A stretch of DNA of 64,000 bases from Pseudomonadota bacterium. GTDB lineage: Bacteria; Pseudomonadota; Gammaproteobacteria; Burkholderiales; Burkholderiaceae_C. This document shows positions 1,762 through 21,302 of the stretch, in pieces (the first letter of the stretch is position 1; each line of letters opens with the position of its first letter). Below the pieces are notes generated by a model. The model worked only from the letters and a program-made list of their open reading frames with translations. It made no database searches and had not been told where the DNA came from. The position numbers were made by a program, and so were the translations under genes. The stretch is taken from NCBI GenBank assembly GCA_021805825.1, contig JAJZEC010000007.1, positions 25,864 through 89,863 of the forward strand, in the 5' to 3' direction.

Positions 1762-1783
1762 CGGCTGCGGGGCCCGCAGCCGG
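1762..1783. repeat. Perfect 10-bp inverted repeat (CGGCTGCGGG-GG-CCCGCAGCCG) in PKS leader
   Basis: Read directly from the sequence, 35 nt upstream of the PKS ATG at 1818. Confidence 0.6.
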
Positions 1784-1817
1784 TGTCCTTTGTTGCCAGG
1801 AACGACAACACGATTTG

Positions 1818-4800
1818 ATGGACACCGCAACCCCGTCCCCCATCGCCATCGTCGGCCTGGCCATGCGCCTGCCCGGCGACCTGCAACAACCACACGACCT
1901 CTGGCAGGCCTTGCGCGAAGGCCGCGATCTCGTCGGCAGCATCGACCCCGCGCGCTGGGCCACGCGCGAACTGCAACATCCCTCGCGCGCGGAACCCGGG
2001 CGCAGCATCACCTTCTCCGCCGGGGTGCTTTCGGACATCGAATCCTTCGATGCCTCCTTCTTCGGCATCTCCCCGCGCGAGGCGCAACTGCTCGACCCGC
2101 AGCAGCGCCTGCTGCTCGAAATGGCCTGGGAGACCCTGGAGGATGCAGGCATTCCGCCCACGCAGGTCGCCGGAAGCGACTGCGCGGTGTACCTGGGCAT
2201 CTCCGGGCTCGACTACGGCATGCGCCTGTTCGGCGACATGGCGGTCATGGGCGCCCACACCATGACGGGCAACACCATGAGCGTGGCGGCCAACCGCCTG
2301 TCCTATGTGTTCGACCTGCACGGTCCGAGCCTGGCGGTGGACACGGCCTGCTCCTCCTCCCTCGTGGCCCTGCACCACGGCTGCGAGGCGCTGCGCCACG
2401 GCCAGGCGGGCATGGCGCTGGTGGGGGGCATCAACGTACTGCTGCACCCCTATCCTTTCGTCGGCTTCACCAAGGCGTCCATGCTCTCGGCCAACGGCCG
2501 CTGCCGGCCCTTCGCTGCCGGCGCCGACGGCTATGTACGCGCCGAAGGCGGCGGGCTGCTGCTGCTCAAGCCGCTGCAGCAGGCGCTGCGCGACGGAGAC
2601 CGCATCCACGGCGTCATCCGCGCCAGCGGGGTCAACACCGACGGCGCGCGCAAGAGCGGGCTGACCATTCCCAGCGGGCAGGCACAGGCCGAGCTCATGC
2701 AGCAGGTGCTGGGCGCGGCCGGGCTGCAGGCGCAGGACATCGACTACCTGGAAGCCCACGGCACCGGGACGCGCATCGGCGACCCCATCGAAGCCGGCGC
2801 CATCGGCCGCGTCTACGGCCAGCCGCGCGACGGTGCGCCGCTGCCCATCGGCTCCATCAAGAGCAACCTGGGCCACCTCGAGCCCGCCTCCGGCATGGCC
2901 GGCCTGTTCAAGGCGCTGCTCGTGCTGCAGCACGCCGAGGTGCCGCCCACGCGGGTGCAGGGCGAACTCAACCCCGACATCGACTTCGACACCCTCGGCC
3001 TGCAGGTGGTACGCGAAGCGGCACCGCTGGCGCCTGCGCAACGCCCGCTGCGTGCGGCGGTCAACTCCTTCGGTTTCGGCGGGGTCAACGCCCACGTCAT
3101 CCTGGAGCAGCCGCCGTCGGCGGCGCCGCGCGCGATGCCGGCGTTCGACGCCGCCGCCCCCGCCGCCGCCCCGCTGCTGCTCAGCGCGCAGGACGCAGGC
3201 GCGCTGCGCGCGCTGGCGCGCGCCTACCTGCCGCTGCTGGAGGATCCGGCGCGGCGCGCCGAGGTGGCGCAGGCGGCCTGGCGTCAGCGTGCATGGCTGG
3301 GCGAACGCCTGGCGCTGGCCGATGCCGGCGATGCGCAGGCGCTGCAGGCGCTGCGCGACTTTGCCGAGGGCGGTGAAGCCGACACTGCCCGACTCTGGCA
3401 GGAGCAGGCGCTGCCCGACCTCGAAGGCGGCCACGCCCGGGTAGCCTGGATCTACAGCGGCAACGGCGCGCAATGGGTGGGCATGGGGCGGCGCCTGCGC
3501 CAGCAGAGCGCGCTGTTCGACAGCACGCTGCGCGACACCGCAGCGCGCATCGCCGCGCATGGCGGCCCCGACGTGCTCGCAGCGCTCGACGACGACCAGG
3601 CGCAGGCGATGGACGACACGGCGGTGGCGCAACCCGCGCTGTTCGCCCTGCAGGTGGCCACCACCAGCGTGCTGCGCAGCCGCGGGCTGCGCGCCGACGC
3701 CGCCATGGGACACAGCGTGGGTGAAATCGCCGCCGCGTGGGCGATGGGCGTGCTCGACCTCGACTCCGCCTGCCGTGTCATCGTCGCGCGCAGCGCGGCG
3801 CAGGCCACCACGCGCGGCGCCGGACGCATGGCCGCCGTGGGCCTGGGTGCGCAGGCGCTGCAGCAGCGGCTGCAGGCACTCGGGCTGGAAGGGCAGGTGG
3901 CCATCGCCGCCGACAACAGCCCGCGCAACAGCACCGTCAGCGGTACGCCGCAGGCACTGCAGCAACTGCACGAAGGCCTGCGCGCCGACGCGACCGCATG
4001 GCGCGAACTGGGTCTGGACTACGCCTTCCACAGCCCCGCCATGGACCCCATCCGCGAGCCCCTGCTGCACAGCCTGCAGGGGCTGCAGCCCGCGCCTGGC
4101 CAGGGACGCGTGTTCTCCAGCGTCACCGGGGCCGAACTCGCCGGCAGCGCCTTCGATGCCGACTACTGGTGGCACAACATCCGCGACTGCGTGCAATTCG
4201 CCCCCGCGCTGCGCGCCATGCGCGAGGCCGGGGTGCGCCTGTTCGTGGAAATCGGCCCGCATGCCATCCTGCAGCGCTACCTCGCGGAAACCCTCGACGG
4301 CGTGCTGCCGCAGGCGCGCGCCCTGGCCTGTGCGCCGCGCCGCGACGACACCCTGGCGCGGCTGCACGAATGCGTGCTGCGCGCGGCCATGCTCGGCGCC
4401 GAGGTGGACGCCGCGGCCTGGTTCGCGCAAGACCTGCCCCGGCGCGTGGCCCTGCCCTCCTACCCCTGGCAGCGCCAGCGCCACTGGTACCCGCGCAGCA
4501 GCGAATCGCGCAGCGCGCTGGAGCGGCGCGCCGTGCACCCCCTGCTCGGCTGGCGCCTGGATGACCATCCAGCCGGCTGGGAGAACCACCTCGACCCGCG
4601 CACGCAGACCTGGCTGGCCGGGCACAAGGTGGGCGGCGCCATGGTGCTGCCCGCCGCCGCCTATGTCGAAATGGCCCTCGCCGCCTCGAAGGAACACTTC
4701 GGCAGCGAAAGCGCCGGCCATGTGCTCGAAGGCCTCGACATCGTCGCTCCGGTGGTGTTCGACGGCGAGCACGCGCGCACCCTGCGCCTGCTCTTCGACG

Positions 4801-7800
4801 CGCAGTCGCTGCGCTTTCGCATCGAGGGCCGGCCGCGCCTGAGCGAGGACGCCTGGACGCTGCACGCCCAGGGGCGCCTGCTCGGCGCCGTTCCCGGCGG
4901 AGAATCGCGCCAGCCGCTGCTCGCGCAGCAACCCGCGGCCACGCGCCTCGACGCGCAGCGCCACTACGCCCTGTGCGAAGCCCTCGGGCTGGACTACAGC
5001 GGCGCCTTCCGCGCCATCCAGGGCATCGAGGTGGCGGCGCGCTCGATCAGCGCCACCCTGCGCCCCGACGACGCGTGCGACCCCGCCTGGCTGCTCCCGC
5101 CGCCGGCCCTCGACCAGGGCTTCCAGTCCGTTCTCGGCTGGCTCGGCGCGCTGCGCCAGGGTCCGGCCGAGGACGATGCCATGGGCTACCTGCCGGTAGG
5201 CATCGGCCGCCTCGACTACTGGGCACTTCCTGCCGCCGACGACGCGCCGGCGCAGCCCGTGCGCAGCGTGCGCGTCAGCTTGGTGCGCAGCAGCCCGAGA
5301 TCGGTGCTGGTCGACCTTGAACTCCTCGACGCCGCCGGCACGGTGCTGGCCCGCCTGCGCGACTGCCGCTTCCGCGCCGCCGCGCTGGTGGCGCAGGCGC
5401 GTGCGGTATCCACCTGGGCGCTGCTGCCCCAGCTGCAACCGCTGCCGCCGTCGCCCGAGGCCGCGGCGCGCGGCGGCCTGCCCGAGGCCGCGGCCCTGCT
5501 GCAGCGCCTGCAGCAGCAAGCCGTCGACACCGAACAGGCCGCCGTGCACGCGCGCTACCTGGAGCAGGCGGCGCCGCTGCTCGAACTGCTGCCGCTGGCG
5601 TTCGGCCGCGACGCACTGCTCGCGCAGTTGCCGCCCGGCTCGACGGTCGAGGACAGCCGCGTGGCGCAATGGCGCCAGGCGCATCCCCTGCTGCAATGGC
5701 TGCTCGACCAGATGGAACAGCAAGGCCTGCTGCTGCAAGGCGCGCAGGGCTGGGAACTGCACGACGACCCGCAGCTGCCAGCCGCCGCCGACATCTGGAA
5801 TGCTGCCCTCGAATCCTGCCCGCAGGCCGCCCCCGAGCTGCTGCAGCTCGGGCTGGCCGGCAGCGCGCTGCCGGCGCTGCTCGCCGGCGCAGCCGATGCA
5901 CCGGCAGCCGACCTGAGCGCGCTGCTGCGCGCTCCCGCCTACCGCATGGCCGACGCGCAGGCACTGCGCGCGCTGCACGCTCTGCTCGGCGACTGGCCGC
6001 GTGGCCGCAGGCTGCGCGTTCTCGAGCTGTGCTCCACCGACGATAGCCTGTTCAGCCCTGCCAGCGCCTGGCTCGAAGGGCTCGCGCACCCCCGCCCGCA
6101 GGATGTCGACTGGGTACTGGGTTGCGCCGATGCCGACGCCCTGGCGCAGTTGCAGGCCGCGCATGCCGATGACGCGCGGCTGCGCGCGCTGCTGCTGGAT
6201 CCGAACGAATTCGAACTCCCCGATCTGGCCGATGAAGCGCCCTTCGACATCGTGCTCGTGCGCCAGGTGCTGCACCGCAGTTCCAAGCCGCAGCGCGCGC
6301 TGCGCGCGCTGGCCGCGCGCATGCACAGCGACGCCTGGCTGCTGCTCGCCGAACGCCGCCCGGATCATGCAGCCCACCTGGGCTTCGGACTGCGGCGCGA
6401 CTGGTGGCATGTGACCGATGGGCGCGCCGAAGGCGCGCTGCTGCCCGACGCCACGTGGTGCGACTGGCTGGCCGAACACGGCTGGCGCGACACCGCCATC
6501 CTGCCCGCGGCCTCGTCCGAGCCCGCGGCGCTGCTCGGCGGCTTCGTGCTGCTGGCGCGCGCTCCGCGGCAGGCACTGCTGCAGCAACAGGCGGCGACGC
6601 CGGTCGACTGGGTGCTGCACCTGCAGCACCCGGCCTGGCAGGCCACCGCCGAACGACTGGCCGAGCGCCTGCGCGCGGCCGGCCACGGCGTGCGGCTGGC
6701 GAGCGCGGACGACGGAGCGGGCGCCGGCTCGCCACAGCGTCATGTGCTGTTCGTCGGCAGCGCACCGCGGTCCGGCGCGCAGCCCACGCCGGCCGACGCC
6801 GCCGAAGTCGCTCGCCAGGCCGAGGCGCTGCGCGGCAGCCTGCTCGAGCTGGCCGCCTCCCCCGAGGGCCGTCGCGTGCACCTGGTGCTGCGTGGCGGCG
6901 CGCTGGTCGACGACGCGCAGGCCACCGCGGCCGACCCGGCTGCCGCGGCGCTTTGGGGCCTGGCGCGGGTCGCGATGAACGAATGCCACCCGCTGGCGCT
7001 GCAGCTCATCGACCTCGATGCCGCCAGCCCCGACGAAGGCGCCGAACGCCTGTTGCAGGAACTGCTGCACGGCGACGACGAGCAGGAAGTGCTGCTCGGC
7101 GCCGCGCACGGCGCCCCGTTGCGCCAGGTGCCACGGGTACGCCCGCTGCCGCTGGAGGCGCAGCAGCACGACGCGCAGGCCTGGCGGCTGGACTTCCGCC
7201 TGGCCGGGCAACTGCGCAACCTGCAGTGGCAGGCGGTGCCGCGGCGCGAGCCCGGCCCCGGCGAGGTGGAGATCCGCGCCATGGCCGCGGGGCTCAACTT
7301 CCGCGACGTCATGTACGCGATGGGGCTGCTCGCCGACGAAGCGGTGGAGCAGGGTTTCGCCGGCGCCAGCCTCGGTCTGGAGGTGGCCGGGCGGGTGCTG
7401 CGCTGCGGCCCCGGGGTCGAACACCTGCGGCCTGGCGACGAGGTGCTGGCCTTTGCCGGCGCCAGCTTCGCCAGCCACGTGGTGGTGCCGGCGCGCGCGG
7501 TGGCCCGCAAGCCCGAGCACTGGAGCTTTGCCGAGGCCGCCACCGTGCCCACGGTGTTCTTCACCGTCTGGTACGCCCTCAAGCACCTGGCCCGGCTGCA
7601 GCCTGGCGAGCGCGTGCTGGTGCATGGCGCGGCCGGCGGTGTCGGGCTGGCGGCCATCCAGGTCGCCAGGCTGCTGGGCGCCGAGGTCTACGCCAGCGCC
7701 GGCAATCCGGCCAAGCGGGCCTTCGTGCGCATGCTCGGGGTACAGCACGTGGTCGACTCGCGCAGCCTGGACTTCGACCGCGCGGTGCTGCGCGCCAGCG

Positions 7801-9428
7801 ACGGCCAAGGCGTCGACGTGGTGCTCAATTCGCTGGCCGGCGAGGCCATTGCGCGCAACCTGGCGTGCCTCAAGCCCTTCGGCCGATTCATCGAACTGGG
7901 CAAGCGCGACTTCTACGAGAACACCCCCGTCGGCCTGCGCCCCTTCCGCAACAACCTGAGCTATTTCGGCGTCGATGCCGACCAGCTCATGTCGCTGCGC
8001 CCGGAACTCGCCGCCGAGGTGTTCGCCGAAGCCATGCAGTGCTTCGCCGACGGCAAGCTCCACCCGCTGCCGCACCGCCTGTTCGAGCCCGACCAGGTGG
8101 TCGACGCCTTCCGCCACATGCAGCAGGCGCGCCAGATCGGCAAGGTCGTGGTCGAGCTCGAGCGCCGGCCGCGCCACATCCAGCCGGCGCAGCGCCCGCG
8201 GCTGCAACTGCGCGCCGACGCCAGCTACCTGGTCAGCGGCGGGCTGTCGGGCTTCGGGCTGGCCAGCGCGCGCTGGCTGGCCGATCGCGGCGCACGCCAC
8301 CTGGTGCTGCTCGGCCGGCGCGGCGAGCAGACCCCCGGGCTGCAACAGCCGCTGCAGGAACTGCGCGCGCGCGGCGTGCAGGTTCAGGTGCACGCTTGCG
8401 ACATCAGCGACCGCCAGGCACTGCGCCAGGTGTTCGAGCAGATGCGCGCCGGCATGCCCGAACTGCGCGGCGTGCTGCACGCGGCGATGGTGCTCGACGA
8501 CGCGCTGATGAGCGGCCTGGACGAGCAGCGTCTGCGCCGCGTGCTGCAACCCAAGCTCGACGGCGCGTGGAACCTGCACCAGGCCACCGCCGGGCTGCCG
8601 CTGGATCTGTTCGTGCTGTTCTCGTCGGCCACCACCATGCTGGGCAACCCGGGGCAGGCCAACTACGTGGCGGCCAACGCCTCGCTGGAGGCGCTGGCGC
8701 GGCTGCGCCGCCGTCAGGGGCTGGCCGGCTGCGCGGTGGCCTGGGGGCCGATCGCCGATGTCGGCGTGCTCACCACCAACGAGGTCGCGCGCGAGAACCT
8801 GCAGGCGCGCCTGGGCGCCGCGCCCATCGAGTCGGCCGCAGCGCTGGATCGCCTGGAAGCCCTGATGCTGCAGCAGGTCGCCGGCGCGGCGGTGATGAAC
8901 CTCGACTGGCCATCGCTGCAGCGCCTGCTGCCCGGCGCCGGGGCACGACGCTTCGACACCCTGCGCGGAGCCGGCGGCGATGCCCGGGAGGACGACGAGG
9001 ACGACCTGCGCCAGCGCCTGGCCGCGCTGTGTGCCGACGAAGCCCGCGCGCTGGTGCAGCAGATGCTGTGCCGCGAGGTCGCTGAGATCCTGCGCCTGCC
9101 TGCCGACAAGGTGGGGCCGGCGCAGTCGGTGTTCGACCTCGGCATGGACTCGCTGATGGCCGTCGAGCTCGGGCTCGCGCTGGAGCGTCGCTTCGGCATC
9201 CGCGTGCCGCCGATGATGCTCAACGAAAACCCCAGCATCGAGCGTATCGCCGAGCGCCTGCTCGCCCAGCTCGGGCCGCAGCCGGGCGAGGAGGCTGCCG
9301 ACAGCACCCGCGACATGGTGCGCAGCGTGCTGTCGCAGCACGCCGAGAACACCGCGCTGCAGCAGGTCGACGAGCTCGCCCAGCAGGTGCGCCAGGCCGC
9401 CGAGGGCGGCACCCAACTCATTGCCTGA
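1818..9428 (+). CDS. wcbR: Type I reducing polyketide synthase KS-AT-DH-(pseudo MT)-ER-KR-ACP, WcbR/RkpA-like
   Basis: KS DTACSSS, HGTGT, KSNLGH; AT GHSVG and YAFHS; DH HKVGGAMVLP and ALDQGFQ; ER VHGAAGGVG; KR SGGLSGFG, VLDD, NYVAAN; ACP LGMDSL; no TE. Followed by a PLP acyltransferase as in Burkholderia wcb and rhizobial rkp loci. Start set at ATG 1818. Confidence 0.9.
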   Translation: MDTATPSPIAIVGLAMRLPGDLQQPHDLWQALREGRDLVGSIDPARWATRELQHPSRAEPGRSITFSAGVLSDIESFDASFFGISPREAQLLDPQQRLLLEMAWETLEDAGIPPTQVAGSDCAVYLGISGLDYGMRLFGDMAVMGAHTMTGNTMSVAANRLSYVFDLHGPSLAVDTACSSSLVALHHGCEALRHGQAGMALVGGINVLLHPYPFVGFTKASMLSANGRCRPFAAGADGYVRAEGGGLLLLKPLQQALRDGDRIHGVIRASGVNTDGARKSGLTIPSGQAQAELMQQVLGAAGLQAQDIDYLEAHGTGTRIGDPIEAGAIGRVYGQPRDGAPLPIGSIKSNLGHLEPASGMAGLFKALLVLQHAEVPPTRVQGELNPDIDFDTLGLQVVREAAPLAPAQRPLRAAVNSFGFGGVNAHVILEQPPSAAPRAMPAFDAAAPAAAPLLLSAQDAGALRALARAYLPLLEDPARRAEVAQAAWRQRAWLGERLALADAGDAQALQALRDFAEGGEADTARLWQEQALPDLEGGHARVAWIYSGNGAQWVGMGRRLRQQSALFDSTLRDTAARIAAHGGPDVLAALDDDQAQAMDDTAVAQPALFALQVATTSVLRSRGLRADAAMGHSVGEIAAAWAMGVLDLDSACRVIVARSAAQATTRGAGRMAAVGLGAQALQQRLQALGLEGQVAIAADNSPRNSTVSGTPQALQQLHEGLRADATAWRELGLDYAFHSPAMDPIREPLLHSLQGLQPAPGQGRVFSSVTGAELAGSAFDADYWWHNIRDCVQFAPALRAMREAGVRLFVEIGPHAILQRYLAETLDGVLPQARALACAPRRDDTLARLHECVLRAAMLGAEVDAAAWFAQDLPRRVALPSYPWQRQRHWYPRSSESRSALERRAVHPLLGWRLDDHPAGWENHLDPRTQTWLAGHKVGGAMVLPAAAYVEMALAASKEHFGSESAGHVLEGLDIVAPVVFDGEHARTLRLLFDAQSLRFRIEGRPRLSEDAWTLHAQGRLLGAVPGGESRQPLLAQQPAATRLDAQRHYALCEALGLDYSGAFRAIQGIEVAARSISATLRPDDACDPAWLLPPPALDQGFQSVLGWLGALRQGPAEDDAMGYLPVGIGRLDYWALPAADDAPAQPVRSVRVSLVRSSPRSVLVDLELLDAAGTVLARLRDCRFRAAALVAQARAVSTWALLPQLQPLPPSPEAAARGGLPEAAALLQRLQQQAVDTEQAAVHARYLEQAAPLLELLPLAFGRDALLAQLPPGSTVEDSRVAQWRQAHPLLQWLLDQMEQQGLLLQGAQGWELHDDPQLPAAADIWNAALESCPQAAPELLQLGLAGSALPALLAGAADAPAADLSALLRAPAYRMADAQALRALHALLGDWPRGRRLRVLELCSTDDSLFSPASAWLEGLAHPRPQDVDWVLGCADADALAQLQAAHADDARLRALLLDPNEFELPDLADEAPFDIVLVRQVLHRSSKPQRALRALAARMHSDAWLLLAERRPDHAAHLGFGLRRDWWHVTDGRAEGALLPDATWCDWLAEHGWRDTAILPAASSEPAALLGGFVLLARAPRQALLQQQAATPVDWVLHLQHPAWQATAERLAERLRAAGHGVRLASADDGAGAGSPQRHVLFVGSAPRSGAQPTPADAAEVARQAEALRGSLLELAASPEGRRVHLVLRGGALVDDAQATAADPAAAALWGLARVAMNECHPLALQLIDLDAASPDEGAERLLQELLHGDDEQEVLLGAAHGAPLRQVPRVRPLPLEAQQHDAQAWRLDFRLAGQLRNLQWQAVPRREPGPGEVEIRAMAAGLNFRDVMYAMGLLADEAVEQGFAGASLGLEVAGRVLRCGPGVEHLRPGDEVLAFAGASFASHVVVPARAVARKPEHWSFAEAATVPTVFFTVWYALKHLARLQPGERVLVHGAAGGVGLAAIQVARLLGAEVYASAGNPAKRAFVRMLGVQHVVDSRSLDFDRAVLRASDGQGVDVVLNSLAGEAIARNLACLKPFGRFIELGKRDFYENTPVGLRPFRNNLSYFGVDADQLMSLRPELAAEVFAEAMQCFADGKLHPLPHRLFEPDQVVDAFRHMQQARQIGKVVVELERRPRHIQPAQRPRLQLRADASYLVSGGLSGFGLASARWLADRGARHLVLLGRRGEQTPGLQQPLQELRARGVQVQVHACDISDRQALRQVFEQMRAGMPELRGVLHAAMVLDDALMSGLDEQRLRRVLQPKLDGAWNLHQATAGLPLDLFVLFSSATTMLGNPGQANYVAANASLEALARLRRRQGLAGCAVAWGPIADVGVLTTNEVARENLQARLGAAPIESAAALDRLEALMLQQVAGAAVMNLDWPSLQRLLPGAGARRFDTLRGAGGDAREDDEDDLRQRLAALCADEARALVQQMLCREVAEILRLPADKVGPAQSVFDLGMDSLMAVELGLALERRFGIRVPPMMLNENPSIERIAERLLAQLGPQPGEEAADSTRDMVRSVLSQHAENTALQQVDELAQQVRQAAEGGTQLIA

Positions 9429-9447
9429 GCCCCCGGAGAACCACCCC

Positions 9448-10812
9448 ATGAGCTCCGCCGACGACAAGCAACCCAGCGCCAAGCCGGCGGCCCGGCCCAC
9501 GGGCCTGGCCGCGATGGCGCGCCAGCGACTGATCGAGCGCCTGCGCGGCCCGGCCGCCCCTGGCGGCGCCTCCGCGCGACTGCAGGAGGAACACGCCGAT
9601 CCCCATCCCAGGGTGCCGGAGTCGCTGTGCCGTTTCGACACCCACCCGGCCTACGAGAAGCTGCTGGTGTCGCAGACCGCCGCACAGCGCGTGGGGGTGG
9701 GCAACCCCTTCTTCAAGGTGCATGAATCGGCCGCCGGCGCCACCACCCGCATCGCCGGCCGCGAATACGTCAACTTCTCCAGCTACGACTACCTCGGGCT
9801 CAACGGCCACCCGCGCATCGAGGAAGCCGTGTTGCAGGCGGTGCGACGCTACGGCACCTCGGCGTCGGCCAGCCGTCTGGTGGCCGGCGAGCGCCCGATC
9901 CAGCGCGAGCTGGAAGCCGAGCTCGCCGCTTTCTACGGCGCGCAGGCCTGCGTGGCCTTCGTCAGCGGCCACGCCACCAACGTCAGCACCATCGGCAGCC
10001 TGTTCGGGCCGAAGGATCTGGTGCTGCACGACGCGCTGGCGCACAACAGCGTGCTCGAGGGCATCAAGCTGTCGGGGGCGCACCGGCGCGGCTTCGCGCA
10101 CAACGACTGGCAGCAGCTCGACGCGCTGCTGCACCAGATGCGGGGTGACTTCGAACGCGTGCTGGTGGTCGTCGAAGGCCTGTACAGCATGGACGGCGAC
10201 CTGCCGGAACTGCCCCGCTTCATCGAAGTCAAGCGCCGCCACAAGGCGCTGCTGATGGTCGACGAGGCGCATGGGCTGGGGGTGCTCGGAGCCACTGGGC
10301 GCGGCGTGGCCGAGCACTGGAGCATCGCCCCCGACGGGGTCGACATCTGGATGGGCACGCTCAGCAAGTCCCTTGCCGGCTGCGGGGGCTTCGTCGCCGG
10401 CAGCCGCCCGCTGGTCGAGCTGCTCAAGTACACGGCGCCGGGCTTCGTCTACAGCGTGGGGCTGTCGCCTGCGATGGCCGCCGCGTCACTGGAGGCGCTG
10501 CGCATGCTGCGCGAACAGCCCGAGCGCGTGCAGGCGCTGCAACGCAACGGTCAGCTGCTGCGCGACTACGCGCGCACGCGCGGCATCGACACCGGGCTGT
10601 CGATGGGCTACGCGATCACCCCCGCGATCCTCGGCTCCTCGCTGCGCGCGGTGAAGGCCTCCAACGCGCTCTTCGAGCGCGGCTTCAACGTACAACCCAT
10701 CGTGCACCCGGCGGTCGAGGAGCGCGCCGCGCGGCTGCGCTTCTTCGTGTCCGCCTCGCACACCGCGGCGCAGATCACCTCGGCGGTCGACGCACTGGCG
10801 CGGGCCCTGTAG
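9448..10812 (+). CDS. wcbT: PLP-dependent alpha-oxoamine synthase (AONS/SPT family), WcbT/RkpG-like
   Basis: NFSSYDYLGL, GTSASASRLVAG, HNS, EGLYSMDGD, DEAHG, GTLSK (PLP Lys). ATG 9448 with GGAGA upstream; alternative TTG 9421 overlaps the PKS stop. Confidence 0.85.
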   Translation: MSSADDKQPSAKPAARPTGLAAMARQRLIERLRGPAAPGGASARLQEEHADPHPRVPESLCRFDTHPAYEKLLVSQTAAQRVGVGNPFFKVHESAAGATTRIAGREYVNFSSYDYLGLNGHPRIEEAVLQAVRRYGTSASASRLVAGERPIQRELEAELAAFYGAQACVAFVSGHATNVSTIGSLFGPKDLVLHDALAHNSVLEGIKLSGAHRRGFAHNDWQQLDALLHQMRGDFERVLVVVEGLYSMDGDLPELPRFIEVKRRHKALLMVDEAHGLGVLGATGRGVAEHWSIAPDGVDIWMGTLSKSLAGCGGFVAGSRPLVELLKYTAPGFVYSVGLSPAMAAASLEALRMLREQPERVQALQRNGQLLRDYARTRGIDTGLSMGYAITPAILGSSLRAVKASNALFERGFNVQPIVHPAVEERAARLRFFVSASHTAAQITSAVDALARAL

Positions 10813-11183
10813 TGTCCCGCCCGCGTGGCCGCCTGCGCGCGTTCACCGACGCTGCCCGCGGCCTGCGCGTGCTGCTGGCCACCCAGCCGCACGCCCGATT
10901 CCATGCCGTGGCGAGCGCAGCGGCGCTGCTACTGGGCGCGGTGCTGCACCTGAGCGCGTGGCGCTGGGCCGCGGTGCTCGCGGCCATCGCGCTGGTCGTC
11001 GTCGCCGAGGCGCTCAACACCGCGGTGGAATTCGCCGTGGATCTGGCCAGCCCGCAGTGGCACGAACGCGCGCGCGACGCCAAGGACGTCGCAGCGGCCG
11101 CCGTGCTGCTGGCCAGCCTGGCCGCGCTGGCGCTGGGCCTGCTGGCCTTTGGCGAACCGCTGCTGCACCGCCTCGGCGGCTGA
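10812..11183 (+). CDS. dgkA: Diacylglycerol/undecaprenol kinase family (DgkA) membrane protein
   Basis: Three hydrophobic helices, AEALNTAVEFAVD and AKDVAAAAVL motifs; GTG start overlaps the upstream TAG. Confidence 0.88.
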   Translation: MSRPRGRLRAFTDAARGLRVLLATQPHARFHAVASAAALLLGAVLHLSAWRWAAVLAAIALVVVAEALNTAVEFAVDLASPQWHERARDAKDVAAAAVLLASLAALALGLLAFGEPLLHRLGG

Positions 11184-11236
11184 GCGGGGCGCCGGCGCAC
11201 TGCCCACCCGGGCGCCCGCCTGAGCAGGCCCACCGC

Positions 11237-11370
11237 CGGCGCGACGACGTGCAAGCCTTCGCGCGCTCGTGCGATCAACTCGATGTACCACTGGCCGTGG
11301 AAGTATCGCGATCTGGCCAGGGCGCGCATGCCTGGGCCTTCTTCCAAACGGCGGGGAGTGCGCGCGATGG
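11237..11370 (+). pseudogene. Remnant of an archaeo-eukaryotic primase (AEP, TOTE-type) / primase-helicase gene
   Basis: About 45 codons RDDVQAFARSCDQLDVPLAVEVSRSGQGAHAWAFF resemble the SRSGxGxHxWxFF AEP motif; no start codon, and similarity ends at the toxin stop. Confidence 0.55.
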
Positions 11371-11709
11371 TCAATCCAGCAGGGCCACGAGACGCCCGAT
11401 AGCGTCGTCGATCACCTCTTGGGGTGCATGCTCGATCTTGCGCGCCTTGCGAGCGGCTAGGTCAAGCATGCGAATCTTGTTCACCAAGGCTACGCCCTGT
11501 GTCTTGCAGCCAGTGCCCGTCAGGGTCACAGCAAAGCCGGCGTAGCGTGCGAAGTCGCCGCCCTGGGTGATCGGCGCGATCAGCACATCGCCGAGCCAGT
11601 TGAACTCCTTGGTCGTCAGGACCAGAGCCGGCCGGGTGCCGCGCTGCTCAAGGCCGATGGCGGGGTCCAGGGGCACGCTCACGATGTCGCCTCGTTCGAA
11701 AACAGCCAT
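11371..11709 (-). CDS. chpB: Type II toxin, ChpB/MazF/PemK endoribonuclease family
   Basis: 112 aa: FERGDIVSVPLDPAIGLEQRGTRPALVLT...APITQGG...QGVALVNKIRMLD. Start overlaps the antitoxin-part stop (TGATG). Confidence 0.9.
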   Translation of the reverse strand: MAVFERGDIVSVPLDPAIGLEQRGTRPALVLTTKEFNWLGDVLIAPITQGGDFARYAGFAVTLTGTGCKTQGVALVNKIRMLDLAARKARKIEHAPQEVIDDAIGRLVALLD

Positions 11710-12446
11710 CAGATGACCTCGCCGCCCACGGGTCGCGCCACATCCCACAGCGCCAGGTCGGCCGGCGGCGCGGCCTTCAGGTCGCACTGCGCGATCATGT
11801 CGGCCAGGACGTACTTGCGCTTGGGCGTCAGCACGATCTTGCCGTCTGCCGTCGTGTCCAGCGTCAGGTGCTGGCCGGCGCCGATGCCAAGTTCTTTGAG
11901 AACCGGGGGCGGGATCACCACGGCGGTGCTGTTGCCCATCTTGATGGAATTGGCCACTCCGCCGACGCAGAAGGCGGTGAGCGGAAGCGCCAGCCACCAG
12001 CTGTGGAGCAGGGGGTCGATTCCGGCAATGTCCAGCCGCGTCAGCGCCACGCCGGTGATGGCGCAGGCGAGAAGGCCCGAGGCCATGGTGGCGAGCAGGC
12101 GGAACAACACCCCCACGCGCTTGGTGAGATCCTCGGCCAGGCCCGCGGCGAAGGCCGGCAGCCCGGCCACGCACAGCCGATTGAGCAGAACCGCTCCATG
12201 GCCCGCACCATGCGCCGACGCATAGACCACGCCCAGCAGCGCCACCGGCCCGGCCAGCAAAGCCACCCCGCCCACCCGCGCGGTGGGACGGGAATGGGCC
12301 TTCTGCACTCCCTCCAGGCCGTCCAGCGTGAGGCGGCCGTGCCAGCGCTGGGTGAGCGCAAGCAGCAGCGCCACACCGCCGGAGACCGCAAGCACCACCG
12401 CAAGCCCGAGCGCACCCTCGAGCAACTCCCGGGCAGCCATGCCCAT
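11709..12446 (-). pseudogene. In-frame chimera: 5' part of a WecA/MraY-like (glycosyl transferase family 4) gene joined to a ChpS/MazE-like antitoxin lacking its first residues
   Basis: Residues 1-168: multi-TM, QKAHSRPTARVGGVAL, AGLAEDLTK, GVANSI. Residues after the junction (about 11940): KMGNSTAVVIPPPVLKELG...KYVLADMIAQCDLK...WDVARPVGGEVI, AbrB/MazE-like. Confidence 0.8.
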
Positions 12447-12641
12447 TCTCCAGAAGATGTTGGTGGATCTCGCCCCGCGGCAACGCGGATGCGCGGGGTT
12501 GGGGGCTGGATGCCGCCGAATCCCCGGCTACATAGAAAAATTCGAATGATTCCGTAGGTTTGACGACAAAAAGTCTACGTTTTTTGCGTGTTACTTGTCT
12601 ACCGTGCCGTGTGACAATCAGGCGGCGCGGCGCCCGGCGGA

Positions 12642-13388
12642 TCAGCGCCCGGCCAGCCAGCCCACGGTTTCCTTGATCGCGTGGGCGCTGCGGCGCAAGG
12701 CGCCGGCATCGGGCAGCCATTCGCGGATTGCGCCTTCGTGCCGCGCCTCGAAATCGGTCGCGGCCGGAACGGCGTGCAGGCCATGCTTGCGCATTTGCGC
12801 CAGCGCGCGCCGCATGTGCAGCGCGGATGTGACGAGCAGCACGTTGTGGATGCCCCGCTTGGCAAGCAGTGCTGCGGAAAATTGCGCATTCTGGCGTGTA
12901 TTCAAGCTGCGGCGCTCGAGCAGCATGGCCTGCCGCGGAACCCCCAGGTCGAGCAGCAGGCTGCGCATCGCGCCGGCTTCCGTTCCCAGGTTCACCCCGG
13001 GGTCGCCATTGCCGCCGCTGAGCACCACCAGCGGCGCCTTGCCGGCGTGGTACAGGCGGGCGGCGTACCACACCCGCGCGGCGGCGCTGTTCAGGTGGGG
13101 CAGATGGCCCGCATGTTGCGGCGGCTCCACACCGCAGCCCAGCACCAGCATCGCCGGCTCCCGCGGCAGGCGCCGCAGCGGGATGTAGGGCACGCTGCGT
13201 TCCACCGCTCCCACCAGCAGGTTGCTGAAGACGGGGGTGGAGCACAGCCACAGCCAGGCCCAGCACAAGGCGGCCAGGATCCACGCCAGGCGGCGCGCAC
13301 GGCGCGCGAGCACCGCAGCCAGCAGCGCGCCGACGAGGGCGGTGCCCAGCGGGGAGATCAGGAAGATGACGAATGTGTCGAAGGCCAT
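12642..13388 (-). CDS. YdcF/ElyC family (DUF218) membrane protein
   Basis: N-terminal TM helices, LVLGCG, LSGG, TEAGAM, LERRSLNTRQNA, LVTSALHMRRA. Start at ATG 13388. Confidence 0.88.
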   Translation of the reverse strand: MAFDTFVIFLISPLGTALVGALLAAVLARRARRLAWILAALCWAWLWLCSTPVFSNLLVGAVERSVPYIPLRRLPREPAMLVLGCGVEPPQHAGHLPHLNSAAARVWYAARLYHAGKAPLVVLSGGNGDPGVNLGTEAGAMRSLLLDLGVPRQAMLLERRSLNTRQNAQFSAALLAKRGIHNVLLVTSALHMRRALAQMRKHGLHAVPAATDFEARHEGAIREWLPDAGALRRSAHAIKETVGWLAGR

Positions 13389-13434
13389 CGCTCGAGGGTG
13401 CGCGTCGGGGCTTGCCGGCGGCCCGCGTAGCTCC

Positions 13435-14640
13435 TCATCGCGGACGATCCGTGGCGCGCCAGCAATCCCGGCGCGCCTCGAAACGCTTGAGCACCAGGCA
13501 GAGCTCGCGCTCGGCTGCCGCGCGCTCGGCGGCGATCTCCCGCAAGCGCGCGTACCCCCGCTCGACCAGCGCGGAAACGCGCTGCGGATCGTCGAGGCTG
13601 GCCACCGCGAGCGCCAGATCCTCCGCGGCATCGGGGTCGACGAGCAGCGCGGCATCGCCCACCTGTTCGCCGATCCCCGCGCTGTAGATCAGGGGTTTGC
13701 CCGCGCTCCAGGCTTCCAGAGGAGGCAGATTGGTGGGCCCGAAGTACGTCGGCATGACGACCGCGCCACAGCCCTCGTACAAACCGCGCAGATCCGCCGA
13801 CTCGACGAAGCCGAGGAAGCGCACCTGCTCCTGCACGCCCAGCCTCACCGCGGTGGCACGCAGGTATTCCAGAACGCCGTAGTCCTTGCCGCACAGCACG
13901 AGCTGGGGTGTCTTGCCGCCGGCTTTCAGGAGGGCCAGGCACTGCAGGATGCGAATGTGGTTCTTGTGCGCCCAGAACTGCGCAGGATAGAACAGATAGC
14001 CCGGGCGCAGCTGGTGGCGTTGCAGCACCTCGGGGGTCGGCGCCGATGTGCTCTCGTTCAGGAAGGGAGAGGGCGCGAAGGGCATCGGCAACAGGCGCGC
14101 CGCATCGACTCCATAGCGCTCGCTGATGCGCCGCGCCAGTTGCGTGGAGTCGCAGAGCACGCAGATGGCCTGCGCCAGGGTGTTGCGGTACAGCTCCTCA
14201 CGCACAAGGAATTCATCGTTCGCCCGCACCTCGGGAAACTCGGGCTGGTCGCGGTGGCTCAGATCCCATACCGTTGCAACGTAGTTCAGGCGCCGCAACG
14301 CGAGGCAGCGGCGGCTCGGCGTGACAAAGTAGAGCAGATCCACACCCATGCCCTCGAGCGTGCGCTCCAGGGCGCTGGTCAGCCCGAGCCGCGCCTGCGC
14401 CTCGCGCAGCAGGCCGTTCATGCTCGCCGCGATCAGCCAGCGCTCCGTCCAGTCGCGCCGGATGTGCACTGCGCGCAGGCCGAGCGCCTCCAGGACGGGA
14501 AGGTTTTCCCGGAATCGCGTCGCGACGAGGAATTCGTAGCGCCCCGAGCACAGGCGCCGCATCTGGTCGATGGCGTTGATCGCCTGGTGGTAGCCGCCGC
14601 CGGCGCTGAGCCGGTTGTCGAGAACGGCAGCAATCCTCAC
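13435..14640 (-). CDS. Glycosyltransferase, GT-B fold (GT4-like)
   Basis: LFYPAQFWAHKNH, VRFLGFV, LPPLEAWSAGKP, VGDAALLVDP. GTG start overlaps the upstream stop (GTGA). Confidence 0.88.
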   Translation of the reverse strand: MRIAAVLDNRLSAGGGYHQAINAIDQMRRLCSGRYEFLVATRFRENLPVLEALGLRAVHIRRDWTERWLIAASMNGLLREAQARLGLTSALERTLEGMGVDLLYFVTPSRRCLALRRLNYVATVWDLSHRDQPEFPEVRANDEFLVREELYRNTLAQAICVLCDSTQLARRISERYGVDAARLLPMPFAPSPFLNESTSAPTPEVLQRHQLRPGYLFYPAQFWAHKNHIRILQCLALLKAGGKTPQLVLCGKDYGVLEYLRATAVRLGVQEQVRFLGFVESADLRGLYEGCGAVVMPTYFGPTNLPPLEAWSAGKPLIYSAGIGEQVGDAALLVDPDAAEDLALAVASLDDPQRVSALVERGYARLREIAAERAAAERELCLVLKRFEARRDCWRATDRPR

Positions 14641-15755
14641 CGCAGACACTCCCGGATCCTTGCCGCGACGCGCTCGATCTGCTGTTCGCTGAGCGCCATG
14701 CCGCTGGGCACGTACAAGCCGCGCAGCGCCAGGCGCTCGGCAACCGGGTAGCGCTCGGAACGGAACCATCCCCGCCCACGAAGAACCGGCTGCAGGTGCA
14801 TGGGGTAGAAAAACGGCCGGGTGCCGACCCCTGCAGCCTGCAGGCGCGCCATCATGGCCGAAGCGTCGAGGCCCGTGGATTCATCGAGCACGATTCCGTA
14901 GACCCAGTAGATGTTGTCGGCGAAGGCAGTTGCCGCCAGCGGGAGTTGCAGCCCGGGGACGTCGCGCAGCAGTTCGGTGTACAACTGCCCCATCCTGCGC
15001 TTGCGCGCCACGAACTCGTCGAGGCGCTCCAGCTGCGCCAGGCCCAGCGCTGCCTGCATGTTGGTCATGCGGTAGTTCCATCCCAGGCGCTCGTGCACGA
15101 AGCGGCGCTGCGGCTGGAAGCACAGGTTCCGCAGGCTGCGGAAGACCTCGGCGAGTTCGGCATCGTCGGTGACCAGCATGCCGCCTTCGCCGGTCGTGAT
15201 GTGCTTGTTGGCGTAGAAGCTGAAGACGCTGACGTCGCCGAAACTGCCGCACGGCGCCCCGCCGCAGGTCTGCCCGTGCATTTCCGCAGCGTCTTCGATG
15301 ACCCGCAGGCCATGCCGCCGCGCCAGATCCGTGATGCGCCGCATATCCACCGGCAAGCCGAAAATGTGCGGAACCAGCAGGGCCTTGGTGTTCGACGTGA
15401 TCCTCGACTCGATCGCCTCGAGGTCCATGTTCCAGGTCTCGGGATCGCTGTCGACCAGCACCGGGGTCGCACCGCTGCGGACGATCTGGGTGATGCACGA
15501 AATGATGGTGAAGGTCGGCAGGATGACTTCGTCGCCCGGGCCCACGCCGAGGGCGTCGACCGCGATGTCCAGCGCCGCGGTGCCGTTGGCCACGGCCACC
15601 GCGTGCCGACGCCCGACGCGCGCCGCGAAACGCTGCTCGAACTCGCGCACGAAAGGCCCGTCGGATGAGATCCAGCCGCTTTCGATGCATTGCAGCAGGT
15701 ATCGCTTCTCGCTGCCGTCGAGCAGCGGTTCATTGACCGGTATGAAATCGTTCAT
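14637..15755 (-). CDS. per: DegT/DnrJ/EryC1/StrS aminotransferase, GDP-perosamine synthase-like
   Basis: IPVNEP, GWISSDGPF, NGTAAL, IEDAAE, FSFYANKHITTGEGG, GWNYRMTN; gmd and manC are in the same run. Confidence 0.8.
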   Translation of the reverse strand: MNDFIPVNEPLLDGSEKRYLLQCIESGWISSDGPFVREFEQRFAARVGRRHAVAVANGTAALDIAVDALGVGPGDEVILPTFTIISCITQIVRSGATPVLVDSDPETWNMDLEAIESRITSNTKALLVPHIFGLPVDMRRITDLARRHGLRVIEDAAEMHGQTCGGAPCGSFGDVSVFSFYANKHITTGEGGMLVTDDAELAEVFRSLRNLCFQPQRRFVHERLGWNYRMTNMQAALGLAQLERLDEFVARKRRMGQLYTELLRDVPGLQLPLAATAFADNIYWVYGIVLDESTGLDASAMMARLQAAGVGTRPFFYPMHLQPVLRGRGWFRSERYPVAERLALRGLYVPSGMALSEQQIERVAARIRECLR

Positions 15756-16507
15756 CAGCGGTTGCTCAGTACGAAACACACGCCCCAGGTATCTTCGCCG
15801 GGAACCCGGCCGCTGAGGAATTCCTCGGCGGCCACGCGCCGGAAGCCGTGGGCCGCGGCCAGCCAATCGATCTCAGGCAGGGAAAAGTGACGCATCGGAT
15901 GCGTTTCCTCCAGAAGCTGCACGCTCCCGTGTCGGCGATCCCGCACGACCATGGTGTAGTGGACATCCACCCGGTTCTCGTTCGGCAGCATCGTGGGCTC
16001 CGCGATGCGCAGGATCTCTGTTTCCTCGTCGGCCATGCGTTTGACCCGCACCGACGGCCGCTGGGCCAGCACAGCCGGCGAGTACCAGGCATCGAACACA
16101 AAGACGCCGCCCGCCTCCAGATGGGCAGCGGCCGTCGCGAACACCGCGCCCAGATCCTCGTTGGACGTCTGGTAGCTCAGCACATGGAACAGCGACAGCA
16201 CGGCGTCGAAGCGGCAGCCCATGCGCACGCTTCGCGCATCCCCGAGCTGGCACGCGAAGCCGCCGCCGGTGGCCGCCGCCGCCATCATCCGGGGGCTGCG
16301 CTCGATTCCCTGCACGCGGTAGCCTCGCCCGGCAAGCAGGCGGCCGTGCCGCCCGGTGCCGCTGCCGAGCTCGAGCAGGCTCCCCTCCACGATGCCCTGG
16401 CGCTCCAGCACGCCGCAGACATACGCGGCCTCCGCTGCGGAGTCCTTGTCGCGGTACAACAGATCGTAGTAACGGCCGTAGGCGTCGAAGGGCAACTCGG
16501 GGCTCAT
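15755..16507 (-). CDS. Class I SAM-dependent methyltransferase
   Basis: YYDLLY, LLELGSGTGRH, GDARS, FDAVLSLFHV, GGVFVFD. Confidence 0.88.
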   Translation of the reverse strand: MSPELPFDAYGRYYDLLYRDKDSAAEAAYVCGVLERQGIVEGSLLELGSGTGRHGRLLAGRGYRVQGIERSPRMMAAAATGGGFACQLGDARSVRMGCRFDAVLSLFHVLSYQTSNEDLGAVFATAAAHLEAGGVFVFDAWYSPAVLAQRPSVRVKRMADEETEILRIAEPTMLPNENRVDVHYTMVVRDRRHGSVQLLEETHPMRHFSLPEIDWLAAAHGFRRVAAEEFLSGRVPGEDTWGVCFVLSNR

Positions 16508-16944
16508 TGCCCGCTCTCCCGGTGGCGAGCCCCGTCGGCGGCAATGCCCTCGAAGCGCTCCTTGTCCGCATCCCCTGCGTACGGACCCTGCTTGACCTCG
16601 ATAATCTCGGAGTCCTCGAGCATTTCGAAGCCGTGGCCTCCGCGAATCAGCAGGATCACGTCGCCGCTTCCGAGCACGCGGCTTTCCAGGTACTCCCGGT
16701 TCTCGTCGTAGAAATCGACCCGAACCCGTCCCCTGCGGATGAACAGCACCTCGTTGGTGTACGTCACCTCGCGCGGAACCGGCCGATGGACGTGCGGCGC
16801 GATGCAGTATCCGGCCGGACGGTTCATGTAGCCCAGCTGCTGCGAGTACGAACCCGGCGTCAGGAACACGATTCCGTTGGCACGATAATCCGCGCGCAGG
16901 ATCAGGGCCAGTTCCACTCCGTCCCGCGAAATGCTCTCGGTCAT
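16504..16944 (-). CDS. Small cupin-fold protein
   Basis: PHVH...EVLFIRRG...GDVILL..GGHGF...EVKQGPY two-His cupin pattern; 4-nt overlap with the methyltransferase. Confidence 0.7.
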   Translation of the reverse strand: MTESISRDGVELALILRADYRANGIVFLTPGSYSQQLGYMNRPAGYCIAPHVHRPVPREVTYTNEVLFIRRGRVRVDFYDENREYLESRVLGSGDVILLIRGGHGFEMLEDSEIIEVKQGPYAGDADKERFEGIAADGARHRESGQ

Positions 16945-16997
16945 GCTTCTCCCCCCAATTCCGTCACGCGATCGCCCGCCGGGCGCACCACCCTGCC

Positions 16998-17798
16998 TCA
17001 GGGTTCATAGCCCAGAACCTCGATCAGGTTTCCGGTCACCTCCCGGAACAACTGATAATGCTCGGCTTCGAATTCATCCCGATGCGATGACGACTTGAAT
17101 CTGTAGTGCGATTCCGTCTTGTCCTGTCGATGCGCCAGGTCGCGCTCGCGCATCCTGTCCTTGGTGTAGTCGCCGACGATCCCGGAAACCTCCGCCGCTG
17201 AATAATCGAGGCCGCAGTGGCGCAGGATGGATTCGATGCCTTCCAGCGGCCTGGAAGTGATGTCCTCGAATTTCAGGAACAGGATATCCGGGTCTTCGCG
17301 CCCGAGCTCCACCCACGAGCGCATCACCGAGAACTTGTCGTTGAACCGGATGAAATAGCTCAGCGCCTCCCTCTTCGGCACCCCCGCGAACCGCCGCCGG
17401 AGATCCAGCACGACCGGATTCTCCGCGTGCGTCTTCATCGTAGAATGATAGTCCGAAACAACCAGGTCGCGGGGATCCCGATAGATATAAACGGCCTTGT
17501 GTGCCTCGGGTTTTTCGATGAAATACCTGTAGGTCTGGTAGGAAACGTAGAGCCCCGGCACGAATACGCCCCGCGGAAAGCGCGCGACGTGTTCACCATA
17601 TTCGTAGTTGCGCTGCGGCATGCGTACAAGCCGCGTGATGCGCGCCATCCGTCGATCGCTGAATATCGCGGAAATCCACTGGCTTCCGCTCTTCTGGACG
17701 GTCGGAAAATACAGATTATCGAGCGTCCGGCCTCCGCGCAGAGCAAAGGCACGCGCTGTGGTCTTCATGTCGCGCAAAAATGTCTTCATGTCCTTCAC
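16998..17798 (-). CDS. PAPS-dependent sulfotransferase domain protein
   Basis: 5'-PSB-like TVQKSGSQW, 3'-PB-like YRDPRDLVVSDY, LKFED. GTG start; alternative ATG 17789. Confidence 0.85.
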   Translation of the reverse strand: MKDMKTFLRDMKTTARAFALRGGRTLDNLYFPTVQKSGSQWISAIFSDRRMARITRLVRMPQRNYEYGEHVARFPRGVFVPGLYVSYQTYRYFIEKPEAHKAVYIYRDPRDLVVSDYHSTMKTHAENPVVLDLRRRFAGVPKREALSYFIRFNDKFSVMRSWVELGREDPDILFLKFEDITSRPLEGIESILRHCGLDYSAAEVSGIVGDYTKDRMRERDLAHRQDKTESHYRFKSSSHRDEFEAEHYQLFREVTGNLIEVLGYEP

Positions 17799-17804
17799 TC
17801 TTGT

Positions 17805-19115
17805 TCACGGCAGCATCCGCAGCCCGGTTCTCCTGCGCACGTAGACCACGGCGCTGAGCTTGGAAAGCAACATGGCGAGATTTTCGCCCCAGACAGCGCC
17901 CAGCAGGCCATCGTAGCCGGCGCCCACCAGCAGGATGGGAATTCTCAGCAACAGGAACGCGATTTCAAACCGCAACAGCTGCCCCTCCCTGTTCGCAAGC
18001 ATCAGCACCAGGCCGGTCTGCCCCGTGAAGGCGTTGATCACCTGGCCGACCATCAGCACCTCGACGATGAGCAGGGAATGCGCATAATCATGGCCGTACA
18101 AGCCGACCACCTTGCTCCCGAACACCGCGATGAGCAGGGCGCAGACCAGGGAAAAGGCTGCGTTCCATCGGGTGGCCATCCGCACCAGAGACTGTGCCTC
18201 GTGGAATTTGCGGGCTGCCCAGGCGACCGCCAGCCTCGACTGCAGGAACAGGCTGATCGAAATCGAGCCCAGAGAAACCACGCCGATGATCTGCCGCGCC
18301 GCCTGCAATACCCCGACATCGCGGATTTCCATGAGGTAGCCGACCACGTACACGACGGCCTGCTGGTCGAGCAGTGCTACGACGGTGACCAGAAAGAAGG
18401 TCGTGGCCGTGCGGTAGGAGATGCCTCCACCGCCCCCGCGCTGCACGCCCGAACCCGCGAGGGCGACCCCGACGCGCCGCAGGCACTGCCGCTGGAAGAC
18501 GATGCCCGAGGCCAGCGCAACTCCTCCAGCCAGCAGCTGGATCTGCAGCGCGGTCGAGATCGTGAACGATCCCGGATGGAGGAACGCCAGCAGCGCCACG
18601 GCGATGAACCATGGCCTGATCCATACATCGGGCAGGTCGGCCCGCAAGACCCACCCAAGGCCGCGCAGGATGGCCGCGCGGTGCTGGTTCAAGGCCTGCA
18701 GGGCAACGATGCCGACGGCCATGCTGATGATGATCAGCGGCACCCCACGCAGGATGCCGAAGGATCCCGACCATTTCGCGATGACCGCGATCGCGTAGAT
18801 CACGACGACCGCGCACAGCATGATGAAGATCGCTCTCCAGAACAAGGCCGCGAAGCCTTCGAACCGATCCACGGCCTTCATCCGCGCAACCTCCCGGGTG
18901 ATCAGGTAGGGCAGGCCGAAGCCTGCCCCGGTGGCCGCCAGCGCAACAAGGGACATGATGAGCGTATAGACCCCGAAGTCCCCGGATCCGAGCATCCGCG
19001 CAATCAGGACGTTGCACGCAAAGAGCACCGCGGCACCCGACACCTTCATCGAGAACATCGCCACGATCCTCAGGAAAGTGGCGCGCCGAGACTCGCTGAT
19101 GGCTTGATCGTGCAT
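17805..19115 (-). CDS. Wzx-like oligosaccharide flippase (MOP superfamily)
   Basis: IARMLGSGDFGVY, many TM helices, GQVINAFTGQTGLVLMLAN. Start uncertain (19115 chosen; ORF extends to 19217 overlapping gmd). Confidence 0.8.
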   Translation of the reverse strand: MHDQAISESRRATFLRIVAMFSMKVSGAAVLFACNVLIARMLGSGDFGVYTLIMSLVALAATGAGFGLPYLITREVARMKAVDRFEGFAALFWRAIFIMLCAVVVIYAIAVIAKWSGSFGILRGVPLIIISMAVGIVALQALNQHRAAILRGLGWVLRADLPDVWIRPWFIAVALLAFLHPGSFTISTALQIQLLAGGVALASGIVFQRQCLRRVGVALAGSGVQRGGGGGISYRTATTFFLVTVVALLDQQAVVYVVGYLMEIRDVGVLQAARQIIGVVSLGSISISLFLQSRLAVAWAARKFHEAQSLVRMATRWNAAFSLVCALLIAVFGSKVVGLYGHDYAHSLLIVEVLMVGQVINAFTGQTGLVLMLANREGQLLRFEIAFLLLRIPILLVGAGYDGLLGAVWGENLAMLLSKLSAVVYVRRRTGLRMLP

Positions 19116-19185
19116 GGAGTCGGGCGTCTCGAAGCTGCCGGGATCGCTCTGCGGGCTTCCTGCGCTCAGGTGGCGCGATGCGGGC

Positions 19186-21268: not shown

Positions 21269-21302
21269 CTCTCGTAGGTGCTTGCAGATCCGTGCATGAC
21301 CG

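Follow-up and report, generated by a model that had tools for sequence, protein, structure and literature searches.

The window analysed here is a stretch of 64,000 nucleotides from a Thiomonas lineage, and on its minus strand a single reading frame (11709..12440) joins the N-terminal part of a membrane glycosyltransferase to most of a ChpS/MazE-type antitoxin, with a toxin gene immediately downstream. As delimited by profile matches and a three-way alignment with intact alleles, the product is 243 residues long from the second ATG, or 245 from the ATG at 12446, and ends at a TGA stop. The second ATG, at 12440, is the likelier start, having GGAG 7 nt 5′ of it and being the start called in the intact allele. 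According to the three-way alignment, the fusion consists of residues 1–166 of the glycosyltransferase (GT4) followed by residues 7–83 of the antitoxin.

The first part (11943..12440, minus strand) is the stump of a priming glycosyltransferase of the WecA/MraY family (PNPT, PF00953). Its Pfam match spans residues 92–168 (profile positions 5–81 of 160) and scores 26.0 bits, below the gathering score of 27, and a hydropathy scan finds five hydrophobic segments rather than the 10–11 transmembrane helices expected of the family. The loops at residues 35–54 and 103–110 are rich in lysine and arginine, and the other loops contain neither. The 3′ end of the stump, ..GGVANSI, falls within the motif of cytoplasmic loop III: only N-S-I is left of NxxNxxDGxxGL, the intact allele reading NSINIIDGFNGL, and the break lies at NSI|NIIDGFNGL. 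The break inside this motif, which the initial annotation had read from the window, is thus confirmed by alignment with the intact alleles.

The second part (11709..11942, minus strand) comprises codons 7–83 and the stop of a chpS/mazE-type gene, without its first six residues (MEVALK) and without the native promoter and operator. Residues 170–211 match MazE_antitoxin (PF04014; profile positions 4–45 of 48, 39.2 bits against a cut-off of 24.7), and residues 169–244 align with positions 7–82 of 83 of the NCBIfam ChpS model; the score against that equivalog (NF008463) is 46.8 bits, under its cut-off of 101, so the sequence is placed at family level only and not as a demonstrated ChpS orthologue. 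Residues 7–83 are 100% identical to the native antitoxin, and the toxin-binding C-terminal region is intact. As had been proposed, just the first residues are missing, although these form the first strand (M-E-[VI]-x-L-[KR]-[KR]), in whose place the GT4 residues ..GVANSI now stand. Direct reading of the sequence also locates the internal ATG noted earlier at 11937..11939 on the minus strand; it corresponds to Met8 of the native antitoxin and is a possible start for a 76-residue product.

The toxin gene (11371..11709, minus strand) encodes an intact ChpB/PemK-family protein of 112 residues, which scores 155.7 bits against the ChpB equivalog NF007320 (cut-off 129) and 78 bits against PemK PF02452 (cut-off 23.1; profile positions 1–105 of 109). 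Its ATG overlaps the stop of the fusion frame as TGATG at 11707–11711, a layout shared by its relatives; these scores and this overlap bear out the description of an intact toxin still coupled to the frame upstream. The toxin ATG is preceded at 7 nt by GAGG (11717–11720), and with this site of its own any transcript entering from upstream would be expected to yield toxin. An exact protein look-up found the identical toxin in strains with an intact antitoxin. In the window's genome, neither a PF04014 profile search nor tblastn with chpS revealed a second antitoxin of this type; the chimera is the only cognate antitoxin sequence left. The genome does encode another PemK-family toxin of 110 residues (G000, contig C80:34963–35265, plus strand), situated behind a small overlapping frame, MPSMHESKVARHRERMRAAGLRPVQFWVPD..., that has no PF04014 match in the genome-wide profile search. 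Neutralisation of the toxin by another antitoxin was therefore considered and judged unlikely: there is no second PF04014/chpS sequence, and the second PemK toxin is paired with an unrelated small antitoxin.

Both undeleted parents of the fusion were found. A query of the first 168 residues against a large protein collection returned intact GT4 proteins of 383 residues, P0001 being 100% identical over residues 1–168 and P0002 99%; P0001 carries PF00953. At the nucleotide level, a contig with intact GT4 (L024) is 99.988% identical to window 19950..11938 and another (L026) 99.53% identical to window 22392..11938. Past the match with the window, both run on into the remainder of the transferase gene and then into further glycan genes. 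On the other side, contig L027, which carries an intact antitoxin of 83 residues and the identical toxin, matches window 11942..1371 at 100.000% over 10,572 nt, and L028, also with an intact toxin–antitoxin pair, is 99.98% identical to the window. In the assemblies retrieved by exact toxin look-up, the intact pair adjoins the same dgkA–aminotransferase–PKS genes as in the window. Sister assemblies thus carry intact GT4 and intact chpS separately, and the joint between them is in frame, in agreement with the in-frame deletion posited by the initial annotation.

The three-way alignment places the joint precisely. Intact GT4 reads GCC AAT TCC ATC AAC ATC ATC GAC GGC TTC AAC GGC CTG (GVANSINIIDGFNGL), intact chpS reads ATG GAA GTC GCG CTG AAG AAG ATG GGC AAC (MEVALKKMGN), and the window reads GCC AAT TCC ATC AAG ATG GGC AAC. 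The two bases AA at 11941..11942 (minus strand) are common to both parents; since the C at 11943 is specific to GT4 and the G at 11940 to chpS, the crossover lies within this dinucleotide (11942–11941), and the joint was placed between 11943 and 11942. The exact microhomology is therefore AA, 2 nt, and not the ATCAA suggested before, with an imperfect homology of 4/5 (AAGAT/AACAT) around it. No repeat or insertion sequence (IS) was found at the joint. The absence of any divergence from the TA-side parent over 10.6 kb makes the event very recent, so recent, with 0 changes in that distance, that an unmutated toxin proves nothing. A recent, illegitimate deletion in a single Thiomonas lineage, at a microhomology of 2 nt, has almost certainly produced the fusion and has left a strain-level scar.

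The reality of the joint is supported by sequencing runs and by independent assemblies. In run X1, from mine drainage, a unitig of 58 nt in the Logan k=31 graph (11913..11970) consists of exactly the fusion-only 31-mers, has no mismatches and has a depth of 43.6, and the flanking unitigs of the window's haplotype lie at 45.8–51.8. A separate assembly contains contig L029, which holds the joint and 261 nt beyond it before it stops, and a contig of run X2, which belongs to a separate study of wastewater, crosses the joint by 7 nt without mismatches, reading GATGGAA where intact chpS has CTTCAGC. The X1 unitig, L029 and the X2 contig together support the junction on which the initial annotation relied. 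A search of run indexes with the junction only matched X1 alone, and in other runs of the same and other studies only intact alleles were seen. An assembly or binning chimera of two co-occurring strains, in which case no such molecule would exist, could draw on the fact that both intact alleles occur in the same samples, on loose ends at 11941 and 11942 in X1, X3, X4, X5, X7, X9 and X28, and on the end of the junction contig L029 only 261 nt past the joint. We consider this extremely improbable. The parents share two bases at the joint, which is far under any k-mer overlap and too few for a k-mer misjoin; the fusion-specific X1 unitig has a depth close to that of its haplotype's flanks; and the joint recurs in the window's genome assembly, in L029 and in run X2. 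The loose ends continue into intact GT4 and intact chpS, indicating instead that parents and derivative coexist. Intact forms are commoner than the fusion across samples, and the fusion is the dominant haplotype at the locus in X1, from which we conclude that the strain carrying it is viable in situ.

The deletion removed the 3′ 217 codons of the priming glycosyltransferase together with the native chpS promoter, operator and first six codons. Homology between the window and the intact TA alleles begins at 11942, and the native sigma-70-like promoter, TTGACG-17-CATAAT (10/12; L027 7130–7158, 31 nt 5′ of the chpS start), is present in the intact allele and absent from the window, so that the pair has indeed lost its own promoter as the initial annotation had supposed. 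The further content of the lost segment was taken from the closest intact strains. On the TA side, about 12 kb 5′ of the native promoter encodes a methyltransferase, an MmyB-like regulator, Wza, a Wzc-like protein of 828 residues with Wzz, GNVR and P-loop domains, a CpsB phosphatase, a YjbF-like protein (a weak match) and a GfcC/YjbH-like protein of 1124 residues. On the GT4 side, intact GT4 is followed by nucleotidyltransferase, epimerase and glycosyltransferase genes, extending up to 11.5 kb in lineage L036. The lost capsule and glycan DNA is absent from the window's genome (3.35 Mb, rated 100% complete), where the search returned only paralogues at 79–84% and one 89-nt repeat. The deletion is at least 14 kb long, a conservative minimum of approximately 14 kb being made up of 0.65 kb of GT4, 1.35 kb in L025 and 12.1 kb on the TA side, and it is probably longer than 20 kb; the figure is a minimum because the contigs obtained by walking out from both sides with exact-protein look-ups do not overlap.

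Several features of the ancestral region were observed alongside. The contigs that flank the lost capsule locus end at a common 226-nt repeat (L036 11859–12084 and L121 4578–4803; 95% identical), which adjoins a reading frame that by eye resembles a transposase remnant; the ancestral capsule locus may have been interrupted by IS copies, which would explain its failure to assemble in one piece. The locus is a mosaic: L024/L025, the strain closest to the window on the GT4 side, and L026/L036 have different genes following GT4. A ManC-like nucleotidyltransferase gene in the window (21446–22711) is an 83–86% paralogue of the gene after intact GT4 in L024, L025 and L026. Just 5′ of the native chpS promoter lies an element of 89 nt (L027 7017–7105) with a 95.5% identical copy in G000 contig C85:1358–1446; inspected by eye, this contig of 6.3 kb shows a toxin frame resembling PIN/VapC beside further small genes that may belong to a mobile element, and the 89-nt element may be a repeat or a mobile-element remnant. 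The first 59 nt of L024 match window 20944–21002 in inverted orientation, about 1 kb from the end of its collinear match at 19950, where L026 is collinear; the explanation is a strain-level inversion or else an artefact of the assembly end. Contigs C52, C70 and C80 of the genome (G000) still hold between them a further Wza gene (on C52) and three priming transferases of the Bac_transf type, from which it follows that other surface-polysaccharide systems survive the deletion; one of these might serve the orphaned glycan genes at window 12642–22400.

On the toxin side, the genes for a PKS, an alpha-oxoamine synthase-like aminotransferase and DgkA (window 1680–11183, plus strand) are 100% conserved in L027, L028 and L029, and the TA pair comes directly after them. 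Between dgkA and the toxin stop lies a fragment of about 45 residues of an AEP-TOTE primase (11234..11368, plus strand; PF22548 positions 98–142 of 230). The same sequence is found at 100% identity in strains with the intact pair, and the fragment is therefore older than the deletion; its presence suggests that the TA pair was acquired along with a conflict island, now decayed. The pair occurs widely among Betaproteobacteria and in varied surroundings, the toxins being 79–97% identical. Among the related loci with an antitoxin, all 79 have the N-terminus M/V-E/Q/D-[VI]-x-L-[KR]-[KR]-[MY]-G-N-S-T, and no other antitoxin fusion was seen in this set. Met8 is a start in none of the 79, and many have tyrosine at this position. 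Thiomonas delicata DSM 16361 (G012, NZ_LT592171.1), of the same genus, was tried as a model of the ancestor and rejected: its GT4 gene, 10 kb from the TA pair, is a paralogue of 40% identity, and the dgkA/PKS genes are missing from the neighbourhood.

The only sigma-70-like site 5′ of the fusion frame is TAGACA-18-TAGACT (9/12; 12572..12601, minus strand), a weak match to the consensus that sits in an AT-rich spacer after a DUF218 gene and is a candidate promoter for fusion and toxin. Transcription of both from the glycan promoter would be predicted from this arrangement. No RNA of the fusion, and nothing on the GT4 stump, was found in three metatranscriptomes of the mine-drainage study that includes X1. 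Two metatranscriptome runs, X21 and X22, contain contigs of a SNP-variant TA pair with the native chpS 5′ end (window 11455–11942), which shows that the intact module is transcribed in situ; as these runs show the intact SNP variant alone, they say nothing about the fusion.

The likely disposition of the fusion follows from what is known of the two families. WecA has 11 transmembrane segments and five cytosolic loops (PMC7685785), and in these enzymes DxxK lies in loop I, DDxxD in loop II and NxxNxxxxGxxG (here NxxNxxDGxxG) in cytoplasmic loop III (PMC5222938); with the break in the last of these, the antitoxin part would face the cytoplasm. In MazE-type antitoxins, an N-terminal swapped-hairpin domain binds DNA and a disordered C-terminal part binds the toxin (PMC4803016), and residues 45–76 of MazE alone still form a complex with MazF (PMC8086154). 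The VANSI that precedes the antitoxin part does not keep the hydrophobic pattern of the conserved residues that were lost, and the dimerisation/DNA-binding domain may be damaged as a result. Our literature search for membrane-anchored, membrane-tethered or transmembrane antitoxins, limited to those phrases in the texts searched, found none.

Taken together, these features outline how the rearranged locus might work. Because the joint is in frame, ribosomes initiating at the transferase start codon would translate five membrane helices and continue into the antitoxin, toxin would be made from the same read-through transcript via its own GAGG, and the working antitoxin of the pair, whose autoregulation has presumably been lost, would be the fusion anchored in the membrane or a fragment cleaved from it. 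That the fusion is translated and neutralises the toxin is, in this scheme, predicted from the gene arrangement. For the whole chain, in which transcripts of the glycan region give toxin and fusion and the tethered fusion neutralises the toxin, we see the chances as about even. A polytopic enzyme cut down to five helices may undergo rapid degradation, and an in-frame joint by itself has a one-in-three chance of arising.

Two other outcomes of the same deletion have to be weighed. The module may be silent or harmless, the pair being barely transcribed or ChpB only mildly bacteriostatic, and the fusion a neutral scar that will decay. The lack of fusion RNA in the three metatranscriptomes, the weak promoter-like site as the only one upstream, the prior of one in three for the in-frame state and the loss of the conserved N-terminal antitoxin strand all fit such a scar. 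Yet GT4 follows an AT-rich spacer and belongs to a glycan operon that is otherwise intact and of which approximately 8 kb align with L024 at 99.99%, so that its identity to strains in which the gene works leads one to expect read-through; the GAGG before the toxin ATG would turn any transcript into toxin; and the related intact module is transcribed in situ. On this evidence, a silent or harmless module seems unlikely to us. The working antitoxin might, alternatively, be a soluble product of 76 residues started at the ATG at 11939 and not the membrane fusion. This codon lies directly after the joint, and its product would retain the complete toxin-binding part and escape membrane insertion and quality control, but it would lack the entire first beta-strand. 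The nearest GGAG ends 17 nt 5′ of the ATG, which makes for a poor ribosome-binding site with no usable Shine–Dalgarno sequence; ribosomes travelling on the fusion frame would occlude the codon; and the record of Met8 among the 79 relatives, where it never serves as a start and is often tyrosine, argues against it further. We regard an internal start as quite improbable, and neutralisation by the tethered fusion as the preferred account of a functioning pair. The further suggestion that the toxin makes the lesion hard to lose found no support: the deletion cannot revert without recombination in any case, and nothing shows selection imposed by the toxin.

Set against E. coli chpBIK (ChpS–ChpB) and mazEF, the locus is similar in that the toxin passes both the ChpB and the PemK model, the antitoxin part matches MazE_antitoxin and aligns with E. 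coli MazE (1MVF, 1UB4), the stop and start codons overlap, and the intact 83-residue antitoxin of sister strains has a sigma-70-like promoter just upstream. It differs in that the antitoxin of the window has neither promoter and operator nor its first six residues and would be translated, if at all, at the C-terminal end of a predicted five-helix membrane protein. Likewise, over its first 166 residues the fusion is identical to a 383-residue, full-length member of the PNPT glycosyltransferases (WecA/MraY) in sister strains, and the region around the break aligns with E. coli MraY (8G01) at GTGNAVNLTDGLDGLA; unlike these enzymes, however, the transferase part of the fusion ends after TM5 in the loop III motif. 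Lacking DG..GL and all later helices, the stump cannot be an active transferase. The only other PF00953 match in the window's genome is one full-length gene, taken as mraY.

A further question is whether the toxin itself determined where the deletion could end. It is possible, although we think it doubtful, that the endpoint was filtered by the toxin, a survivor having needed a translatable antitoxin, and that the TA pair now stands on a foreign promoter with a functional, N-terminally truncated MazE-type antitoxin tethered to the inner membrane. A barrier of this kind has precedent in experimental work on superintegron cassettes, in which, as cited in PMC4803016, chromosomal TA loci obstruct large deletions (Szekeres et al. 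2007, Mol Microbiol 63:1588). The present case resembles the barrier described there: the large deletion lies in a variable region and ends at a TA module, and both the toxin and a translatable antitoxin remain in the survivor. The case differs in being a single natural event, which cannot show that selection by the toxin shaped the endpoint. Because ancestor and derivative coexist in one community, the idea of a toxin filter is directly testable. If it is right, the locus would provide a natural example of two things, a TA module that halts a deletion and a type II antitoxin anchored in the membrane.

Chimeras of genes made by deletion are common, and both gene families involved here are well known; for these reasons the find is not a fundamental one. 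The fusion is a real and recent deletion scar that arose in an ordinary way, and any function of it is a prediction. What the locus offers is a clean natural experiment, in which one mine-drainage community contains both undeleted alleles, 99.99% and 100% identical, alongside the derivative that carries the deletion. Should the fusion work, a MazE-type antitoxin would tolerate both the loss of its conserved first strand and tethering to the membrane, a TA pair could be re-wired to a host promoter, and there would be field evidence that chromosomal TA modules limit the extent of neighbouring deletions. For Thiomonas itself, the deletion marks a lineage without one capsule or exopolysaccharide export system, which may matter for biofilm formation or phage sensitivity.
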